Virus record (IMG/VR): IMGVR_UViG_3300021979_000003 | Coordinates: 160,001-224,000 of that record | Length of the DNA stretch: 64,000 bases | Origin: a virus | Taxonomy: Duplodnaviria > Caudoviricetes | Strand: one strand, 5' to 3' | Shown: positions 57,067-64,000 of the stretch, piece by piece | Numbering within the stretch: the stretch's first letter is position 1 | Layout: each line of letters begins with the position of its first letter | Notes under the pieces: generated by a model | Databases searched by the model: none | The model's input: only the letters and a program-made list of their open reading frames with translations | What the model was told of the DNA's origin: nothing | Made by a program: the position numbers and the translations under genes

Positions 57067-58409
57067 AACAGTATATAGACCTTATCGATAAAGTTCTTAA
57101 TGAAGCAACGAATGACTACGACAAAACAAAGCTTCAACCCGCCTTGATGACACGTTCCGAATATATATCTCATCGTAATCCTAGAGGTAAGATGCACTCT
57201 TCTGATGCATACAAAACCACAATAGATTCATTGAACCAAGACTATTCACTATCGCTTAACCGCCAAGGCGGAATGCTGATTGTTGGTGGTGAAAGATATA
57301 CTTTACTATCCAATGAGCAAGATGGAAAAGAATTATACTTAGTTCTGAAGAGTGCTGATAATAAGGATGATATAGAAGCATTTGCTAAAGATGGTGTTCT
57401 TTATTATGATCCCATGAGGATTAGACGAGACGATGCAGTAAGTGCTACGAATGCAGATTACCATGATCTTGAAATTCAACCCGTTAAATATATCGAACCT
57501 TTGTTTAAACGTCTTAACCTGAAGTCTCAAATAGATAAGTATCCCAAGCCTATTAAGAATATAACGATAGATGGTGAACAAATAAGAATTCGTCAAGCAG
57601 ACGATCAGTTTGGAGATATAGCAGCTTTTAATGAAGATGATATGAAAGTAGCAGTGGGTCAGGATGAATGGGGCGCTGTACTAGTAATGGTTGCTGATGA
57701 ATACCGTGGTAAGGGTATTGGTCCGATAATGCAGAAGATATACACTGAACTGTATCCAGACAAAGAATCTGGTGGATTCACACCATCTGGACTTAACAAC
57801 GCTACTAAGGTATGGGAAAGAGAAGTAAGACGATTCTTAGCTTCTGGTATCTATAGTAACTTAATTCGTAAAGGTGAAATAAGTAAAGAAAGAGTAGATG
57901 ATATATTGTCGGGATTAAGTGGTAAGGTTGACTTTAAATCGAATCTTCCAAAGAAAGTTCCACAAAAAGAAAAAGATTACATGGTTTATTATAACGGTGC
58001 GAATGCTTTTATATTATATGACAAAGATTATTTACTTGATCATGACTTAAAATACATCTATGCGTATATTCATTTAGAACAGAAACCAACTGCAAAAGAT
58101 AATGAGGTTTATGTATTCCGTTTTGAATATGAATCAGATAAGGATAGACAGACGCTATTCCATATTGCTATTCAACAGATGGAATCTGAAGGTGTTACTG
58201 TACGAGAAGACGAAGCCGGATCAGACTATTTCAAATATAATGATATGAAACACATTGAAGTAAAAGATGGTGTTTTCAAAATGAATAAGAAGCCATTTTC
58301 TAATCTGAAGATGCTTTATAGCAAAGAAAAGCAGTTAAGAAACCAAATCGATAAATATAATGAAGTACTATACAATTTACTTGAAGATGCCGAACGAAAA
58401 TGGAGATAA
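57063..58409 (+). CDS. multi-domain protein with a GNAT acetyltransferase-like motif
   Basis: VLVMVADEYRGKGIGPIM (motif A) ...SGGFTPSG. Confidence 0.6.
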   Translation: MKQYIDLIDKVLNEATNDYDKTKLQPALMTRSEYISHRNPRGKMHSSDAYKTTIDSLNQDYSLSLNRQGGMLIVGGERYTLLSNEQDGKELYLVLKSADNKDDIEAFAKDGVLYYDPMRIRRDDAVSATNADYHDLEIQPVKYIEPLFKRLNLKSQIDKYPKPIKNITIDGEQIRIRQADDQFGDIAAFNEDDMKVAVGQDEWGAVLVMVADEYRGKGIGPIMQKIYTELYPDKESGGFTPSGLNNATKVWEREVRRFLASGIYSNLIRKGEISKERVDDILSGLSGKVDFKSNLPKKVPQKEKDYMVYYNGANAFILYDKDYLLDHDLKYIYAYIHLEQKPTAKDNEVYVFRFEYESDKDRQTLFHIAIQQMESEGVTVREDEAGSDYFKYNDMKHIEVKDGVFKMNKKPFSNLKMLYSKEKQLRNQIDKYNEVLYNLLEDAERKWR

Positions 58410-58415
58410 TTTAAA

Positions 58416-59324
58416 ATGAGTATGAAAAAATACAGAGAACTTCTTGAAAGCGTAGAAAACGGAAAAGAAGTTGAAGAATCAAAAGAAGAAATGGAAGAAA
58501 CCCTTGAAGAAGATCGTTACGAAGAAGAGCTTCCCGGTGATGAAGATATGGGTATGGATTCCTCACTAGACATGGACGACTACGATCTAGACAGCGAACT
58601 AGATATGGAAATTGCACGTGATGGTCTGGAAGATGAGTATATGGGTGATGACGAAGAGTATATTGCACCTGATCTAGACGCGGATATGGACGTTGATGAT
58701 GAACTAGGTTCAGAAGAGGACGATGTTATCTTTAACTACACTGCAACTATTCAACTAACTGGCTATGATTATCCACTAGTTCTACAGGCTGACGACATGG
58801 AAGAAATCAAAACTGTTATGCGTGTAATGCAACAAAGTGGTCTAAACCCTAAAGGTGATTACAAGTGGAACAGTAAGACATTTGAAATTGAGCTTGATGA
58901 ATCTGCTGAAAATAACCGTAAGCGAGAAATCGTTCATAGTGAAAATGGATTTGATATTGTAAAAGTCAAAGGCGGCGGTTGGGCCGATTCATATAAAGTA
59001 TATAAAGGCAACAAAATAGTTAGTAATTGGAATTATTATGATGATGCCTTAGATTTTGTTCAAGGTAAAAAGTCTGATAAAGAATCTGTTACTGAAGAAG
59101 CTGATGATAATTGGGCATACGATGAAGGCTGTGAAGCTGCGAAGGCCGATTGTAAAGCAGGTCTAGGTAATTACATTGGTGATCCTCGTGATACTGTTAA
59201 AGATGATAAGGAAATGAGTTCTTCTGAAAAACAGAAATACATGAAGGGTTATAAGAAAACTTTAGATGATAAAGGTTATAAGCTTTCAGGCTCTGGTGAG
59301 AAGACGCAAATTGTTAAGAAATAA
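58416..59324 (+). CDS. very acidic probable head-associated protein
   Basis: E/D-rich with LLES/VEES/LDES/VTEE motifs; ends at a terminator. Confidence 0.65.
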   Translation: MSMKKYRELLESVENGKEVEESKEEMEETLEEDRYEEELPGDEDMGMDSSLDMDDYDLDSELDMEIARDGLEDEYMGDDEEYIAPDLDADMDVDDELGSEEDDVIFNYTATIQLTGYDYPLVLQADDMEEIKTVMRVMQQSGLNPKGDYKWNSKTFEIELDESAENNRKREIVHSENGFDIVKVKGGGWADSYKVYKGNKIVSNWNYYDDALDFVQGKKSDKESVTEEADDNWAYDEGCEAAKADCKAGLGNYIGDPRDTVKDDKEMSSSEKQKYMKGYKKTLDDKGYKLSGSGEKTQIVKK

Positions 59325-59345
59325 TCTATAACAAGCATTAGATAT

Positions 59346-59373
59346 AAAAAGGGACGCTATACGTCCCTTTTTT
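59346..59373 (+). terminator. intrinsic terminator
   Basis: AAAAAGGGACG-CTATA-CGTCCCTTTTTT. Confidence 0.85.
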
Positions 59374-59374
59374 A

Positions 59375-59402
59375 TTGACAATAAATAAACTTATGATATT
59401 GT
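59375..59402 (+). promoter_or_regulatory. sigma70 promoter overlapped by a 10-bp inverted repeat
   Basis: TTGACA-N16-TATTGT with TGn extension; ATTGACAATA (59374-83) / TATTGTCAAT (59397-406). Confidence 0.55.
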
Positions 59403-59421
59403 CAATATAGTGAGGTGAAAT

Positions 59422-60120
59422 ATGGCTAATAATAACAAAAATATAGAAGATGATGGAATTGATACTTCAAGTTTTAAGTCAAGTCTATCGGACTATCTAT
59501 CAAGCTCTAGTATATTGGATAAACTAAAACAATCTCAAGATGATTTTAAAGTTAATACATCAATGCCAAATTATACAGACTATTCGTATGATTATGACTA
59601 CACAACTGCAAGAAAGAATTTAACAAGCACTGGCGGTCCTGTTGGTTGGGGAACTACCACTACGGGAACTACCAACATGGGTCATGTTCATACACATACT
59701 GGAACGACTAGTATAGGTGGGACTCATACACACAACCTAGTTTATGATTCATCCATGTATCAGTTCTACAAACAGCCATTTTCAAAGGCTGGATTCATCA
59801 ATGATGTGATTGTGGCTGGTAACTCTGTGAAGAGACATATCGAATCGCACATAGACAACTATACTGATGATGGTCTAATTGACTGTCTTGAATTTTGTGA
59901 TAAGTTCGAACTATTAACCCCCGATTTATTCTGGTATGCGGTAAGCAAAAACCTAGTGTTATATCCTTTGTACACCAAGTACCATGAAGTAGATAGATGT
60001 CTTGAAATTATAGAACGAGAAAAAAATAAAAACATAATTGGGTATACCGCAAAGAATGTCAAAGAAGATATTGAATTCAAACGTGGAGTCAATAAGTTAA
60101 AACTTAAAGGTGTTCTGTGA
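59422..60120 (+). CDS. hypothetical protein with Thr/Gly/His low-complexity linker
   Basis: 232-aa ORF with GAGGTG RBS. Confidence 0.6.
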   Translation: MANNNKNIEDDGIDTSSFKSSLSDYLSSSSILDKLKQSQDDFKVNTSMPNYTDYSYDYDYTTARKNLTSTGGPVGWGTTTTGTTNMGHVHTHTGTTSIGGTHTHNLVYDSSMYQFYKQPFSKAGFINDVIVAGNSVKRHIESHIDNYTDDGLIDCLEFCDKFELLTPDLFWYAVSKNLVLYPLYTKYHEVDRCLEIIEREKNKNIIGYTAKNVKEDIEFKRGVNKLKLKGVL

Positions 60121-60575
60121 AAATACCTTGGAAGTATTCTCTTATTGAACAAATAACAAATACAACACTTGGCCTCTTTATTGGGGCCTTGTTTCTGATA
60201 TTTGTCATAAATCCTATGTTCTCACTATCTCTAACTGTTATTGTGAGTATAGAAGTATCTATCATCATGTTTATTGTAAGCACGATTAGAGGGCTTCTGA
60301 TACGTAGACTGTGGATTCGATTTATAGAAGAGAAGCAATCGTTGAGACATAGTTTTGTTGAAAAGTTCATAGACGTTGGTTTGGGACTTGTCATTGCTAC
60401 TATTGTTTGGTCGTTCTTCGTAATGCCTGCGTATGATGTGCAGACCACATTCTTCGTAGATTTGTTGATTAACTTGATGTTCTTCTTCGTGAATCTATTA
60501 CGCTCTGTAGTAGTTAGAAGATTCTTTGAAATTCATTCACAAAAGTACTTGACAGGAAGTACCCAGACTGTATAA
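60117..60575 (+). CDS. membrane protein, two tandem 2-TM repeats
   Basis: SLIEQITNT.LGL.I...IMFIVSTIRG..IRR.W and SFVEKFIDVGLGLVI...MFFFVNLLRS.VVRRFF; GTG start. Confidence 0.65.
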   Translation: MKIPWKYSLIEQITNTTLGLFIGALFLIFVINPMFSLSLTVIVSIEVSIIMFIVSTIRGLLIRRLWIRFIEEKQSLRHSFVEKFIDVGLGLVIATIVWSFFVMPAYDVQTTFFVDLLINLMFFFVNLLRSVVVRRFFEIHSQKYLTGSTQTV

Positions 60576-60576
60576 T
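60549..60576 (+). promoter_or_regulatory. consensus sigma70 promoter
   Basis: TTGACA-N16-TATAAT. Confidence 0.75.
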
Positions 60577-60594
60577 TGAACACAGTTAGCGCTA

Positions 60595-60863
60595 ATAGGG
60601 AATGTAATTCCCGAGTAGATAATCATGGCAATTCAAGTTCCAGATTATTATATTATGGAGTTTTCATCCGGTTTAGATATATAAAATACTAGATTTAATA
60701 TATTATTAAACACTAACATATATCTATTAGCTAGATGTTAACAAGCAACTGATTGGGTTAAATTTATAGACACTATCATAGAATATATATTCTATAATAC
60801 TTATAAAAAGTGTCGAATCTGGGAGCCGCGACTCAGTTGTTTCATGTTATCTACTTCCCCTAT
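60595..60863 (+). ncRNA. candidate structured, pseudoknotted ncRNA or long leader; family not recognised
   Basis: ORF-free; follows the promoter; 5'/3' closing stem, nested helices and a crossing 9-bp helix found by eye. Confidence 0.55.
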
Positions 60864-60890
60864 CTATATTGATATATCAGGACAATGAAC

Positions 60891-61700
60891 ATGCGAAACT
60901 TTGACGAAATAATTGATTCTGCAACACATGAACTTGTAAAGAGTCATGGCTTTACTGATGAGAACAGTAACGAATATAAAGTATTATTCGAAGGTAGACG
61001 TGCCACACTCCTATCAGATTTCAATGATAAGGTCGATCTTAATAATATAACTGCCCCTGCCCTGAAAGGTGTCAAAGAACTTATCGCCAATGGTGTCATT
61101 GAAGACACAAAACAAACTGCGGTGGTATCGTTTTCGAGTTTAATGGCTGGTCAGTTTATCCACTTAGTTAACTTCATCAAAGACAATGACGAGCTTAAAT
61201 ATCATCAGCTTCATAATAGGTCTAATATTCTTATTGAAAATCTAACACCTTTTAAAGCTCTGCAACTTTCTGAGCTATTGAAAAATGATCTTGTATACTT
61301 GACTCTCAGTCTGAAGTACCTTGAGAAGTATGCTGAGTTGGTTCAAAGTAAAGTAATAACCATCAGTACTGATGGCAAGCTTTACAATAAAAATAAGACA
61401 TATAAGATCAATGTTCGCGTAGCAGCAAATGTTCCTGCCGCCGAGGCAAATAGACGTAAAGATCATTATGCTGACGTTATTCTAAGACTATCCAAAGGTC
61501 TAAAAGAAAAAGGCTATGATGCAATGATCGGAACATCAGGTGGTAATGTCGGTCACTCATTGACAATGTACACTGATGATATTCCATCACTTAATATTTT
61601 TAAGCTATATCGTCTTGGTAATATTAGTATTGGTGTACGTGACGATCTTAAGATGGTAACGGATGAAGAGTTTGTAGGTATTTTCAAAGACCTCTTATGA
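60891..61700 (+). CDS. hypothetical protein
   Basis: Track ORF 60885..61700; ATG 60891 is better spaced from AGGA. Confidence 0.65.
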   Translation: MRNFDEIIDSATHELVKSHGFTDENSNEYKVLFEGRRATLLSDFNDKVDLNNITAPALKGVKELIANGVIEDTKQTAVVSFSSLMAGQFIHLVNFIKDNDELKYHQLHNRSNILIENLTPFKALQLSELLKNDLVYLTLSLKYLEKYAELVQSKVITISTDGKLYNKNKTYKINVRVAANVPAAEANRRKDHYADVILRLSKGLKEKGYDAMIGTSGGNVGHSLTMYTDDIPSLNIFKLYRLGNISIGVRDDLKMVTDEEFVGIFKDLL

Positions 61701-61752
61701 TCTTGAATTATATTTTTAATTCAGGTATTATGTTCATAAGAGGATTTGGAAT

Positions 61753-62106
61753 ATGCTAGATTACGCAATTGAAAAAGCAAGAGAGATAGACCTTGATGAA
61801 AACTATGTCAGGGTCTATGCTGTTATTACTGACAAGCGTGGACGTATTGTTAGCGAAGCTCATAACAGTTACACAAAAACGCATCCACTCCAAGCACGGT
61901 TTGCTAAGATTGTTGGTAACGAAGAAGCTGTATACCTTCATGCTGAGATTCGTGCGATGGTTAAATGTAAAGAAGGTCAGGGACATAAAATGTATGTAGC
62001 TAGGGTAGGAAGAACAGGCAATCCACTTCCTGCCTGTCCGTGTGAAATTTGTCAGGCTGCAATAGAAAGACTTGGGGTGGTTAAATCAGTGGAGTATACT
62101 GTATGA
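61753..62106 (+). CDS. CMP/dCMP-type zinc-dependent deaminase
   Basis: V.AVI.DKRG.I.S...NS...HAEI.A...PCEIC. Confidence 0.85.
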   Translation: MLDYAIEKAREIDLDENYVRVYAVITDKRGRIVSEAHNSYTKTHPLQARFAKIVGNEEAVYLHAEIRAMVKCKEGQGHKMYVARVGRTGNPLPACPCEICQAAIERLGVVKSVEYTV

Positions 62107-62870
62107 GTAAAAATTTTATTGACCTTGATGCGTTTACTAAATTTGTTGCAAATACTATCAGTGGTTATATATGTGATCCTGAAACGGATTGTGACGTAAA
62201 CGATTTTCTATCTTATCCCCAATTTGTTTGGTCCTTCAACTATGGAAGTATGATTTATCATCCAGAGCTTGCAAAGGATTATGATGTTTGTGTAATACTA
62301 TCAGAACAGTTAGTTGATATCTTCAATAACATCTTTAATAAAGACATTTTCGATACATGGACTATCAATGGATATCCAATAGATGTTAAGCATACGGTGT
62401 TCAGTTATCTAGATAGTTCTGAACTCCTAGAGCTTGATTACAATATACAGAATGACCGGTCTTGCTATAGGCCGCTATATCTTAAAATGTCACACGCATA
62501 TCTACATCAAGATTCGGTAGAAATGCTGGTGTCTATGGCTTTGTGTGAAAAGCAGAAGGTTCGTCATTCTATATCACAAAAATGCTCTAACTCATTTGTT
62601 AAAGCAAAGAAAAAGTTAACGGTAGAAAAGGATTATGATCGTTATTCTTCCATGAAGTCACTGTTTCATAGTATTCGAATGGCAGTCTTTGCATATAACT
62701 ACGCTAAAGATGGTATTATAAAGCCTTCGGCGTGTTCTGAGTTATACAAAGAAATTATTGAAGATTATGAAAATCATAGTGATGACGAAGTACTTGAATT
62801 AATTAAGACTAAATACAAAGGGATTTATAATGAAAAGATGAGACTCTTTCGTCTCTTTTACCCAAAGTGA
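62103..62870 (+). CDS. pol-beta-superfamily nucleotidyltransferase-like protein
   Basis: FNYGSMIYH.ELAKDYDV (GS...DxD); C-terminal KAKKKL...KSLFHSIR helical domain. Confidence 0.7.
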   Translation: MSKNFIDLDAFTKFVANTISGYICDPETDCDVNDFLSYPQFVWSFNYGSMIYHPELAKDYDVCVILSEQLVDIFNNIFNKDIFDTWTINGYPIDVKHTVFSYLDSSELLELDYNIQNDRSCYRPLYLKMSHAYLHQDSVEMLVSMALCEKQKVRHSISQKCSNSFVKAKKKLTVEKDYDRYSSMKSLFHSIRMAVFAYNYAKDGIIKPSACSELYKEIIEDYENHSDDEVLELIKTKYKGIYNEKMRLFRLFYPK

Positions 62871-62877
62871 GAAAAGT

Positions 62878-62901
62878 ATGGTAGGTCCAAAAGTTATTTA
62901 A
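62878..62901 (+). CDS. candidate micro-ORF MVGPKVI
   Basis: ATG GTA GGT CCA AAA GTT ATT TAA, 7 nt after the nucleotidyltransferase stop, with GAGA upstream. Confidence 0.45.
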   Translation: MVGPKVI

Positions 62902-62918
62902 TATAGGAGAACCTTATT

Positions 62919-62942
62919 ATGGTTGGCCCAAAACTTATTTAA
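62919..62942 (+). CDS. candidate micro-ORF MVGPKLI
   Basis: ATG GTT GGC CCA AAA CTT ATT TAA, preceded by AGGAGA with an 8-nt spacer. Confidence 0.5.
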   Translation: MVGPKLI

Positions 62943-63999
62943 TATTAGATTTTATACTTTTAACTAAATCGTGTAAGATCATCGGGTTGGATACTGAAGG
63001 CATTGTGTTCGCTTCTAGGAAGTAAACATTGCCTTCAATTTTACCCCTTGTTATTTTACCTGAAATCTTACCAACCCCTGATACGAAAGCCCCTAGTGAC
63101 TCAGACACTTCCGTTTTTGATATTGCTATATCAACACCGCTTGCACCGTAACCTAATTCTTTAATAGCTGTAATGGCTATATTCTTACAAACATTATATA
63201 CTTCACCACTAGTAATAGATGTCATTGACATATTACTACCCATCTTTTTGTAGATACCACTTAGGTGATAATCACCATTCATGTAATACACTACAACTCT
63301 ATACTCAGACGCTATATCTAATAATGGTTGGAATACATAGTCTTCTGGGTTTTTAGGAACCTTATTAATAAGTTGACCTTCCTGTCTTTGACCACTCTTA
63401 TGTTTTGCTATAAATCGACCCTGTACATCATCACTGTCTTCATAAGTAGGAACCGTAGGAACTTTGCCTTTAAGCATATTATATTGTGATTGTTTGTTGT
63501 AATATGCATTACCGAAATGAATTGTATTTCCAACTTCAGATATAGATGAGCGCCTACCAAACTTAATCATAGCTTGTCCTTTAAGAACACTTTCGCCTAT
63601 TTCAAATACGTTGCTTTTATCTGCAAGTTTATATATGTAATTTTGGAATTGCGCAGGTGCTTCATGGACATTTGATAGAATTATTTTAAACTCAGTATCT
63701 TCTTCTGGTTCTTCTTCGTTTTCGTTTAAGTACTCATCACTAAGATGCTGTTCTACTTTATCTACTGACATTTTAGTTCCATGAGCTATCCAGTAGTTAA
63801 GAATGTTTGAACTGAATGGTGATTTTTGTGAAAAGCCAAAAGTAACATATTGGTTGCGCTTCATCAGGGTATTGATAGTTTTATTAGATGTTACGGTAGT
63901 TGCAAAGATAAACTGATAGTTATTAGCTACATCTCGTACTGCACGATATAGAAGAGTATAGGCATTAAAACTTCTCGCTTCAGGTTTGATATAAAGATA
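62935..63999 (-). CDS. ATP-grasp (RimK-like) domain protein; 5' end beyond the window
   Basis: FIAKHKSGQRQEG, YVFQPLL...EYRVVV, LGYGASGVDI, YFLEANTMPS; frame stays open upstream of the track start (63864) to the window edge. Confidence 0.75.
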   Translation of the reverse strand, partial: YLYIKPEARSFNAYTLLYRAVRDVANNYQFIFATTVTSNKTINTLMKRNQYVTFGFSQKSPFSSNILNYWIAHGTKMSVDKVEQHLSDEYLNENEEEPEEDTEFKIILSNVHEAPAQFQNYIYKLADKSNVFEIGESVLKGQAMIKFGRRSSISEVGNTIHFGNAYYNKQSQYNMLKGKVPTVPTYEDSDDVQGRFIAKHKSGQRQEGQLINKVPKNPEDYVFQPLLDIASEYRVVVYYMNGDYHLSGIYKKMGSNMSMTSITSGEVYNVCKNIAITAIKELGYGASGVDIAISKTEVSESLGAFVSGVGKISGKITRGKIEGNVYFLEANTMPSVSNPMILHDLVKSIKSNIK

Positions 64000-64000
64000 C

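Follow-up and report, generated by a model that had tools for sequence, protein, structure and literature searches.

A candidate new family of pseudoknotted 5' leader RNA upstream of ORF269 in rare, uncultured giant T4-like phages

A structured RNA lies between a consensus promoter and ORF269

The stretch of DNA analysed here, referred to throughout as the window, comprises 64,000 nucleotides (nt), bases 160001-224000 of the 239-kb IMG/VR virus record IMGVR_UViG_3300021979_000003, which is estimated to be 54% complete. The phage carries T4-type genes, coding for a gp43-like DNA polymerase, both topoisomerase II subunits and baseplate wedge and hub proteins, and its nearest cultured relative is Salicola phage SCTP-2 (DNA polymerase identity 61%). 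The subject of this report is a non-coding element that lies directly upstream of an open reading frame (ORF) designated ORF269, and which a preliminary description made from the sequence alone had proposed to be a promoter-driven, pseudoknotted RNA of unrecognised family. We consider it highly probable (about 0.9) that the element represents a new, previously uncatalogued family of structured 5' leader RNA; its hosts are a small group of rare, uncultured giant T4-like phages. The features of the locus are listed below, where the window clade denotes the window together with its close relatives.

60117-60575, plus strand: upstream ORF (DUF7220), the TAA stop of which falls within the -10 box of the leader promoter
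60549-60576, plus strand: sigma-70-type promoter TTGACA-N16-TATAAT
60582-60597, plus strand: 5' tail, window clade only, carrying the 10-nt palindrome UUAGCGCUAA (60586-60595)
60598-60612, plus strand: P0 hairpin GGGAAU-GUA-AUUCCC, present in the minimum free energy (MFE) fold, window clade only
60613-60628, plus strand: P1 5' strand GAGUAGAUAA-U-CAUGG, pairing with 60842-60856
60629-60637, plus strand: linker CAAUUCAAG, joining P1 to the pseudoknot strand
60638-60645, plus strand: pseudoknot 5' strand UUCCAGAU, pairing with 60817-60824
60660-60742, plus strand: P2, a long AT-rich hairpin domain seen in MFE and consensus folds, variable in length and sequence
60744-60752, plus strand: P3 5' strand AGCAACUGA, pairing with 60833-60841
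60754-60761, plus strand: core motif UGGGUUAA, in which GGUU (60756-60759) pairs with AGCC (60824-60827) to give P3b
60769-60814, plus strand: P4 (GACACU/AGUGUC) and P5 (palindromic hairpin 60778-60795), an insertion in the P3b loop, window clade only
60817-60824, plus strand: pseudoknot 3' strand AUCUGGGA, overlapping the core motif GGAGCCG (60822-60828)
60833-60841 and 60842-60856, plus strand: 3' strands of P3 and P1, immediately adjacent to each other
60857-60890, plus strand: A+U-rich spacer of 34 nt, with the Shine-Dalgarno (SD) sequence AGGA (60879-60882) 8 nt 5' of ATG 60891
60891-61700 (annotated 60885), plus strand: ORF269, always the 3' neighbour of the RNA
61753-62106: small deoxycytidine monophosphate (dCMP) deaminase, after ORF269 and followed by a 255-amino-acid ORF

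The consensus promoter that had been noted is a 12/12 match, and the only one within 58000-64000. From its spacing, transcription would start at about 60582 (A60582 or C60583). Equivalent promoters are found at the same distance in related contigs, which are given L numbers here: TTGACG-N17-TATAGT in L003, that of L026, TTGACA-N16-TATACT in both L048 and L053/L056, and TTGCAA-N16-TACAAT in L055, where a terminator comes before the promoter. The distance from transcription start to RNA element is 0 to ~30 nt in all lineages. As had also been claimed, the stretch is free of credible ORFs (60576-60884); there are 3-10 stop codons in every frame of 60582-60866, with a longest ATG ORF of 19 amino acids, and in the other five leaders tested the longest such ORF is 0-25 amino acids. 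From the end of the element it is always 23-38 nt to the start codon of an ORF269 homologue (23-90% identity), and this spacer is 59-78% A+U in all lineages. No terminator and no second promoter was found between the RNA and ORF269 in any lineage.

Since the element has its own promoter and would run into ORF269 without a terminator or second promoter, it should serve the ORF269 operon as a 5' leader, if nothing more. That it is a leader rather than a separate gene is further supported by the constant A+U-rich spacer, by the start of the RNA at P1 right after the promoter in three lineages, and by the position of the L055 terminator ahead of the promoter. Among the options that had been offered, which included a riboswitch-like leader of the ORF at 60891, a leader therefore fits best; the riboswitch part of that proposal is an unlikely rival, considered below.

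Three other sites were seen in the course of this analysis. A terminator-like hairpin at 60819-60836 was rejected, as it is not conserved in L003. The terminator of L055 (positions 1-30 of that contig) is a strong intrinsic one, ACCGGCC-AATT-GGCCGGT followed by T5, located 5' of the leader promoter. On the minus strand a 10/12 promoter-like site, TCGACA-N16-TAGAAT, is present at 60789-60816, inside the P4/P5 insertion, and is probably a by-product of the AT-rich palindrome.

Folding and architecture of the RNA

Folding was assessed on the plus strand of 60583-60870 against 200 dinucleotide shuffles. The native sequence gave an MFE of -67.4 kcal/mol compared with -50.4 +/- 4.4 kcal/mol for the shuffles (z -3.84), and none of the 200 equalled it. 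Folding of the minus strand is weaker (z -2.74), and several G-U pairs are compatible with the plus strand only. As the plus strand accommodates the G-U pairs, folds better and also covaries (see below), we take the element to be an RNA encoded on the plus strand.

It can be seen that every complementarity in the preliminary description is present in the sequence: 60614-27 with 60843-55, 60743-52 with 60833-42, 60769-74 with 60809-14, 60638-46 with 60816-24, 60595-600 with 60858-63, and the palindrome at 60778-95. To these we add two parts that it lacked, the 5' hairpin and the long AT-rich hairpin domain at 60660-60742. However, not all of the pairings belong to the conserved structure. The proposed outermost helix ATAGGG/CCCTAT competes with the local hairpin 60598-60612 that is favoured by the MFE fold, and in L026 and L024 a T-to-C change at the position of 60596 produces a C-A mismatch that breaks its distal pair, so we do not retain it. 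The inner GACACT helix and its palindrome do pair, but they are not part of the core: the P3b loop is 9-10 nt in L048, L055 and L053 compared with 55-64 nt in the window clade, and we therefore regard them as a clade-specific insertion.

The architecture is P1-PK5'-P2-P3-P3b-(P4/P5)-PK3'-P3b'-P3'-P1', where PK denotes the pseudoknot strands. It contains one H-type pseudoknot within a P1/P2/P3 three-way junction, formed by pairing of the P3b hairpin loop back to the strand just after P1. This replaces the double-nested topology of the RNase P/MRP type that had been suggested. The accompanying statement that the conserved sequences of RNase P are absent was borne out, as there are no conserved (CR) regions and no RNase P model matches even at E <= 10. 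When the window sequence is taken singly, the pseudoknot is the best inter-loop duplex, but only borderline so, since 14 of 300 loop shuffles match it.

Outside the core, the RNA differs between lineages in an orderly manner. P0 shortens symmetrically, to GGGAA/UUCCC in L024 and GGGA-GAAA-UCCC in L003, and is missing from L048, L053 and L055, in which P1 is the first element of the RNA. The linker ends in AAG or AAA in all lineages (ACGAGAAA, AAAUAAAAG, GACAACUAAAG) and is ~5-11 nt long, a range that depends on where P1 is taken to end in the L053 lineage. The immediate adjacency of the P3 and P1 3' strands is kept in L048 and L055, and a 7-nt linker separates them in L053. By thermodynamic prediction that leaves pseudoknots out of account, the initiation region is ~0.5 unpaired in all lineages and no conserved anti-SD sequence is seen.

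The 5' tail is unpaired in all folds and, in the clade variants that cover it, invariant at all but one position. Possible pairing of the tail with P3 or with the loop of P2 was judged by eye and is not conserved. The tail contains a perfect 10-nt palindrome, TTAGCGCTAA, at approximately +5 to +14, which is invariant in those window-clade variants that extend this far, and the 5' end of L048 carries a similar sequence, GTAAGCGTAAT. With a single occurrence in the window, the palindrome is not above chance expectation; it could serve as an operator to which a dimeric DNA-binding protein binds, or as a site of RNA dimerisation.

Helices covary among close relatives

The protein encoded downstream of the element falls into four close clusters of 73-100% identity, and the element was found directly upstream of its gene in all of the contigs concerned (L003, L024, L025 and L026-L030) despite a differing upstream gene. 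Covariation within this clade was tested with five distinct variants, using as controls partner strands slid by 1-3 columns and 500 shuffles. In the consensus structure 92.7% of cells are paired, compared with 34-44% in the slid controls. Eleven pairs are changed on both sides; the slid controls have 0-4 such pairs and the shuffles average 5.1, with none of the 500 reaching 11.

Individual changes are found in several helices. In P1, CAUG/CAUG becomes UGUGG/CCGCG, and L003 and L024 carry compensatory changes along with a paired deletion. An A-U pair of P4 is G-C in L003 (GACAC/GUGUC to GGCAC/GUGCC), the base of the P2 stem covaries (CAUC/GAUG in the window, UAUC/GAUA in L003 and GUUC/GAAC in L024), and an A-U pair at the end of P3 becomes U-G. 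Both strands of the pseudoknot are invariant in the window clade, and it is for this reason that the knot cannot be tested there.

The core and its pseudoknot are retained in four deep lineages

More distant relatives were sought through the protein. An exhaustive HMMER search of 1.84 billion representatives returned five remote ORF269 homologues (23-40% identity), and complete upstream regions were recovered in three further lineages: L048, L053/L056 and L055/L052, of which L053 derives from a 361-kb marine contig. Across the four lineages, including that of the window, the downstream proteins are 23-30% identical. All share one order of elements: promoter, P1, AAG/AAA linker, UUC strand, AT-rich hairpin(s), P3, U[G/A]GGUUAA, loop, G[G/A]AGCCG, P3', P1' and spacer. 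U[G/A]GGUUAA is present in 8/8 sequences from the four lineages and G[G/A]AGCCG is invariant in all of them, while the position of P2 is taken in the other lineages by different AT-rich hairpins. The natural versions in L053, L055 and L048 are compact (173-221 nt), those of L053 and L055 occupying L053:3803-3975 and L055:94-288, and the full-length MFE z scores of the minimal forms, in which the pseudoknot is left out of the count, are -2.34, -3.21 and -0.92.

The pseudoknot occurs in four versions, UUCCAGAU/AUCUGGGA, UUCCAAC/GUUGGGA, UUCGAGC/GCUCGGA and UUCUGG/CCAGAA, and relative to that of the window there are six double substitutions and zero disruptions. The bases just 5' of AGCC thus change in step with the strand on the 3' side of the AAG linker. 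P3 is found in five versions, all of which pair: AGCAACUGA/UCAGUUGUU, GGUAACUGU/GCAGUUGCU, CACGGUAAU/AUUGCCGUG, UACUGGGUUU/AAGCCCAGUA and GGGUAUG/CAUACUC. The P1 sequences of the other lineages are wholly different yet complementary. When duplex energies were compared between strands from the same lineage and strands from different lineages, the values were -11.4 and -1.5 kcal/mol for P1, -7.5 and -2.1 kcal/mol for the pseudoknot, and -10.1 and -2.7 kcal/mol for P3.

The strands of the pseudoknot are positioned by the invariant AGCC and AAG-UUC anchors, which leave little freedom of choice, and we therefore consider that the crossing helix (60638-46/60816-24) is confirmed, as it changes in sequence and keeps its pairing across the four lineages. 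The same is true of the closing stem P1 and of P3, which had been called the adjacent helix. We conclude that compensatory changes, which the preliminary description had asked for in homologues, are to be found both in close variants and across deep lineages.

Distribution of the RNA and database searches

The RNA matches no known family. With Rfam 15 at gathering thresholds there were zero matches in the whole window, at E <= 10 over 60400-61000 there were chance-level matches only (for example STnc430, which scored 22 bits where the threshold is 47), and at E <= 5 there was no match on the L048, L055 and L056 leaders. The check by Infernal against Rfam thus agrees with the initial view of a promoter-driven pseudoknotted RNA, of ~285 nt, that has no Rfam family in any lineage. 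ARAGORN found no transfer RNA or transfer-messenger RNA gene in the window. A comparison at the DNA level with 50,697 phage records gave nothing, both the RNA and ORF269 are missing from SCTP-2 and from all cultured phage records, and nothing relevant was found in the literature on structured RNAs of jumbo phages.

The element is present in one copy per genome: a regular-expression search with the core found 1 site in the 239-kb genome, and the RNA model R1 gave no second copy there and nothing in SCTP-2. Scans of IMG/VR added no further member. An 18-mer of the 5' tail found the known relative and a chance match in a small ORF (L004) only, and a 17-mer found 19 loci with 0 fitting the model. 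The core pattern with AGCCGATAC found 57 loci, 0 with an ORF269-family gene by tblastn; most of these were recurrences of the pattern in sequences that share nothing else, and L106, the only locus with complementary flanks, falls within an ORF. One scan of the metagenome collection returned the known contig and chance coding matches only. A search for related loci with P0007 alone gave nothing, and word-indexed protein searches added little.

The ORF269 protein

ORF269 has two in-frame ATG codons, separated from the AGGA sequence by 2 and 8 nt, respectively, and its homologues begin at the second. On account of this spacing and of the homologues' N-termini we place the start at 60891 rather than 60885, and the annotated 271-amino-acid form is probably two residues too long. 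A comparable case was noted in L048, where the GTG start that the gene caller assigned to P0008 falls within the 3' strand of leader P3 (L048:1091-1132); there, homologue alignment and an AAGGA Shine-Dalgarno sequence favour an in-frame GTG 13 codons downstream (L048:1130).

No Pfam or PHROG family matches ORF269, and a search of a protein atlas gave nothing. AlphaFold2 models reached a predicted local distance difference test (pLDDT) score of 51 with four close sequences and of 87 with a nine-sequence alignment, and the latter predicts N-terminal helices followed by two ferredoxin-like domains. Fold searches with this model (PDB, AFDB clusters, BFVD and VIA-wide) returned generic ferredoxin-fold matches only (best Z 7.3).

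Possible functions of the leader RNA

The reading that we favour, with a rough probability of 0.4, is that the fold is a cis-acting translational operator to which a trans factor would bind, the likeliest candidate being the ORF269 protein. Host RNA polymerase would start at ~60582 from the consensus early-type promoter, and the first ~275 nt (60582-60856) would fold into P1, the variable AT-rich arm P2, the hairpin P3/P3b and the H-type pseudoknot. The short A+U-rich spacer would then lead to the ribosome-binding site of ORF269, with the dCMP deaminase and the 255-amino-acid ORF to follow. The trans factor, which would be ORF269 once it had accumulated, may recognise UGGGUUAA, GGAGCCG and the pseudoknot, and the bound factor would block or occupy the adjacent unstructured initiation region, limiting ORF269 synthesis. 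The transcript ends, the binding of the factor and the regulatory outcome are the parts of this scheme that we infer. An operator is suggested because the RNA is linked to one gene family, is present in single copy, is followed by a constant A+U-rich spacer and has no detectable expression platform. Autogenous control in particular is favoured since the RNA is found only with one protein family and once per genome, since RNA and protein are both absent from SCTP-2, since no alternative fold that would sequester the SD sequence is visible, and since the phage is of the T4 type, a group known for the gene 32-style mechanism.

Several points weigh against this interpretation or against the structure on which it is built. 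At 170-285 nt the element far exceeds known phage operators, and its highly conserved junction nucleotides would equally suit a small-molecule pocket. ORF269 is near neutral (isoelectric point ~6.3), and its ferredoxin-like domains are generic, with weak matches. The 111-nt upstream region of the P0009 lineage (L050/L051) is without the motif; it follows that the protein does not need the RNA. MAFFT and RNAalifold applied to the minimal forms recover P3b only, as junction lengths differ; in the deep lineages each sequence was folded separately and its helices were assigned with the invariant motifs as anchors, and the four independent lineages are too few for statistics of R-scape grade.

Some of the same evidence can be read in terms of a riboswitch, in which the pseudoknotted core would be an aptamer for a small molecule and its ligand would alter translation of the operon. 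The general features of such an RNA are present, with an invariant U[G/A]GGUUAA and G[G/A]AGCCG core and covarying P1, P3 and pseudoknot; some 20 nucleotides that hardly vary sit in junctions and loops while the helices covary, P2, P4/P5 and P0 are variable or optional in the manner of the peripheral domains of many riboswitch classes, and, as in aptamers of the SAM-II and preQ1-II type, an A-rich strand lies next to an H-type pseudoknot. The ligand might be a pyrimidine nucleotide, a suggestion that comes from the dCMP deaminase in the operon, and a nucleotide-metabolism enzyme is encoded in the operon of three lineages. However, the L055 operon has an RNA ligase in place of the deaminase, neither a terminator nor, in thermodynamic predictions that ignore pseudoknots, a conserved alternative SD pairing that could serve as expression platform was found, and no known riboswitch model matches. 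Riboswitches usually precede several related genes, whereas this motif heads one gene family only, in single copy per genome. We think a riboswitch improbable. Equally improbable is a stable non-coding RNA cut from the leader, acting as a ribonucleoprotein with ORF269 or targeting a host factor as decoy or guide. It would account for the dedicated strong early promoter, for the long closed P1 stem, which would shield a processed RNA, for the gain or loss of RNA and ORF269 together, and for a size and complexity (three-way junction, pseudoknot) that fit functional non-coding RNAs better than simple operators; an Acb2/Tad1-type anti-defence gene also lies a few kb downstream in L026. Against it are the retention of the protein without the RNA in the P0009 lineage, the lack of an own terminator in any lineage, and a constant short distance to the start codon that suggests coupling to translation. 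Taking the two ideas together, the view that the core is either a new riboswitch-class aptamer or the RNA subunit of a phage ribonucleoprotein with ORF269, through which these phages would sense or manipulate, early in infection, nucleotide metabolism or host defence, seems to us doubtful.

A promoter-proximal RNA that acts on transcription or messenger stability, either put-like, by modifying RNA polymerase, or as a 5' structure that protects the early messenger from 5'-end-dependent decay, would be in keeping with the finding that in all lineages the RNA begins no more than ~30 nt from the transcription start. For protection, though, a simple hairpin at the 5' end would be enough, which leaves the conserved core and pseudoknot without explanation, and no terminator that would have to be overridden was found at the start of the operon; we rate this as very unlikely. 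Least credible of all is that the element acts as DNA (an origin, a packaging or protein-binding site or a mobile inverted repeat) or is functionless, with the fold a by-product of inverted repeats. There are indeed long inverted repeats (60614-27/60843-55), the 10-bp palindrome at +5 to +14 could be an operator, and the upstream gene differs among relatives. However, the G-U pairs fit one strand only and it is the plus strand that folds better, the crossing helix covaries although a DNA cruciform would have no need of it, and the element is single-copy with constant position and orientation relative to promoter and gene.

Comparison with known leader RNAs

The translational operator that we favour has its closest parallel in the gene 32 leader of T4, T2 and RB69, where, likewise in T4-type phages, a 5' H-type pseudoknot is followed by an unstructured A+U-rich stretch into the ribosome-binding site; gp32 of T4 nucleates on the leader pseudoknot and spreads over the A+U-rich region that covers this site (PMC3014915). 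The same layout is seen here, with a covarying pseudoknot and then a moderately accessible A+U-rich spacer of 23-38 nt. The gene 32 pseudoknot is, however, a small two-stem structure ~67 nt upstream of the start codon, whereas the present RNA is 170-285 nt long and, unlike it, has a closing stem, a three-way junction, an AT-rich arm and core motifs of its own. The proteins also differ: gp32 is a single-stranded DNA-binding protein of the oligonucleotide/oligosaccharide-binding (OB) fold, and ORF269 is not gp32 but models as helices with ferredoxin-like domains. The T7 A1-A2 leader (T7 460-760) does not contain the UGGGUUAA...GGAGCCG core.

Pseudoknotted 5' leaders with covarying helices and a conserved core that serve one gene family are also known for ribosomal proteins (rpsO/S15, the alpha operon/S4 and L20). 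Those leaders mimic the ribosomal RNA sites of known RNA-binding proteins, whereas ORF269 is near neutral and its binding of RNA is a proposal, and no Rfam leader model of this kind matches. SAM-II, SAM-V and preQ1-II riboswitches resemble the element in that a hairpin loop pairs with a flanking strand, in the A-rich strand and in a position directly 5' of the translation start. However, they are 50-80 nt in size, and in them the SD sequence is part of the 3' pseudoknot strand or borders on it, whereas here it lies 15-25 nt past a closed P1; no ligand-dependent switch is apparent and none of their models matches. With RNase P and MRP RNA the crossing helices are the sole likeness, the present RNA being a leader of a protein gene with a single pseudoknot of different topology.

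To our knowledge, pseudoknotted RNAs that are supported by covariation are rare, and very few are known in virulent phages. Here a large RNA with a sharply conserved core is tied to an uncharacterised protein family, so that each gives a handle on the other, and the RNA marks the ORF269 gene as one that is tightly controlled. The compact versions in L053, L055 and L048 can be used as they stand for probing, binding and structural work. If the RNA binds its own protein, the T4 paradigm would be extended to a much more elaborate operator; if it binds a metabolite, it would be a new class of riboswitch carried by phages.

Genomic neighbourhood

Downstream, the operon of L055 has an RNA ligase gene (PF09414; L055:1913-2899) in the place of the dCMP deaminase. 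A 77-amino-acid protein with a hairpin domain of Acb2/Tad1, an anti-CBASS/anti-Thoeris sponge family, is encoded ~3 kb 3' of the operon, beside ribonucleotide reductase (L026:8018-8251, L027:6223-6323), and for this reason the leader lies close to a possible anti-defence region.

The upstream neighbour varies, being DUF7220 in the window, L026 and L056 and an unrelated 168-amino-acid ORF in L003 (L003:2157-2663). Further upstream, a 448-amino-acid ORF (phrog_29287) is syntenic in the window, L003, L026 and L056. In L053 (L053:3590-3790) the DUF7220 gene appears to have lost a few hundred of its internal bases by deletion between short direct repeats, CTGTTTTT, and a 398-nt apparently intergenic region is the result, whereas L056 (3339-3785) keeps an intact gene of 148 amino acids.

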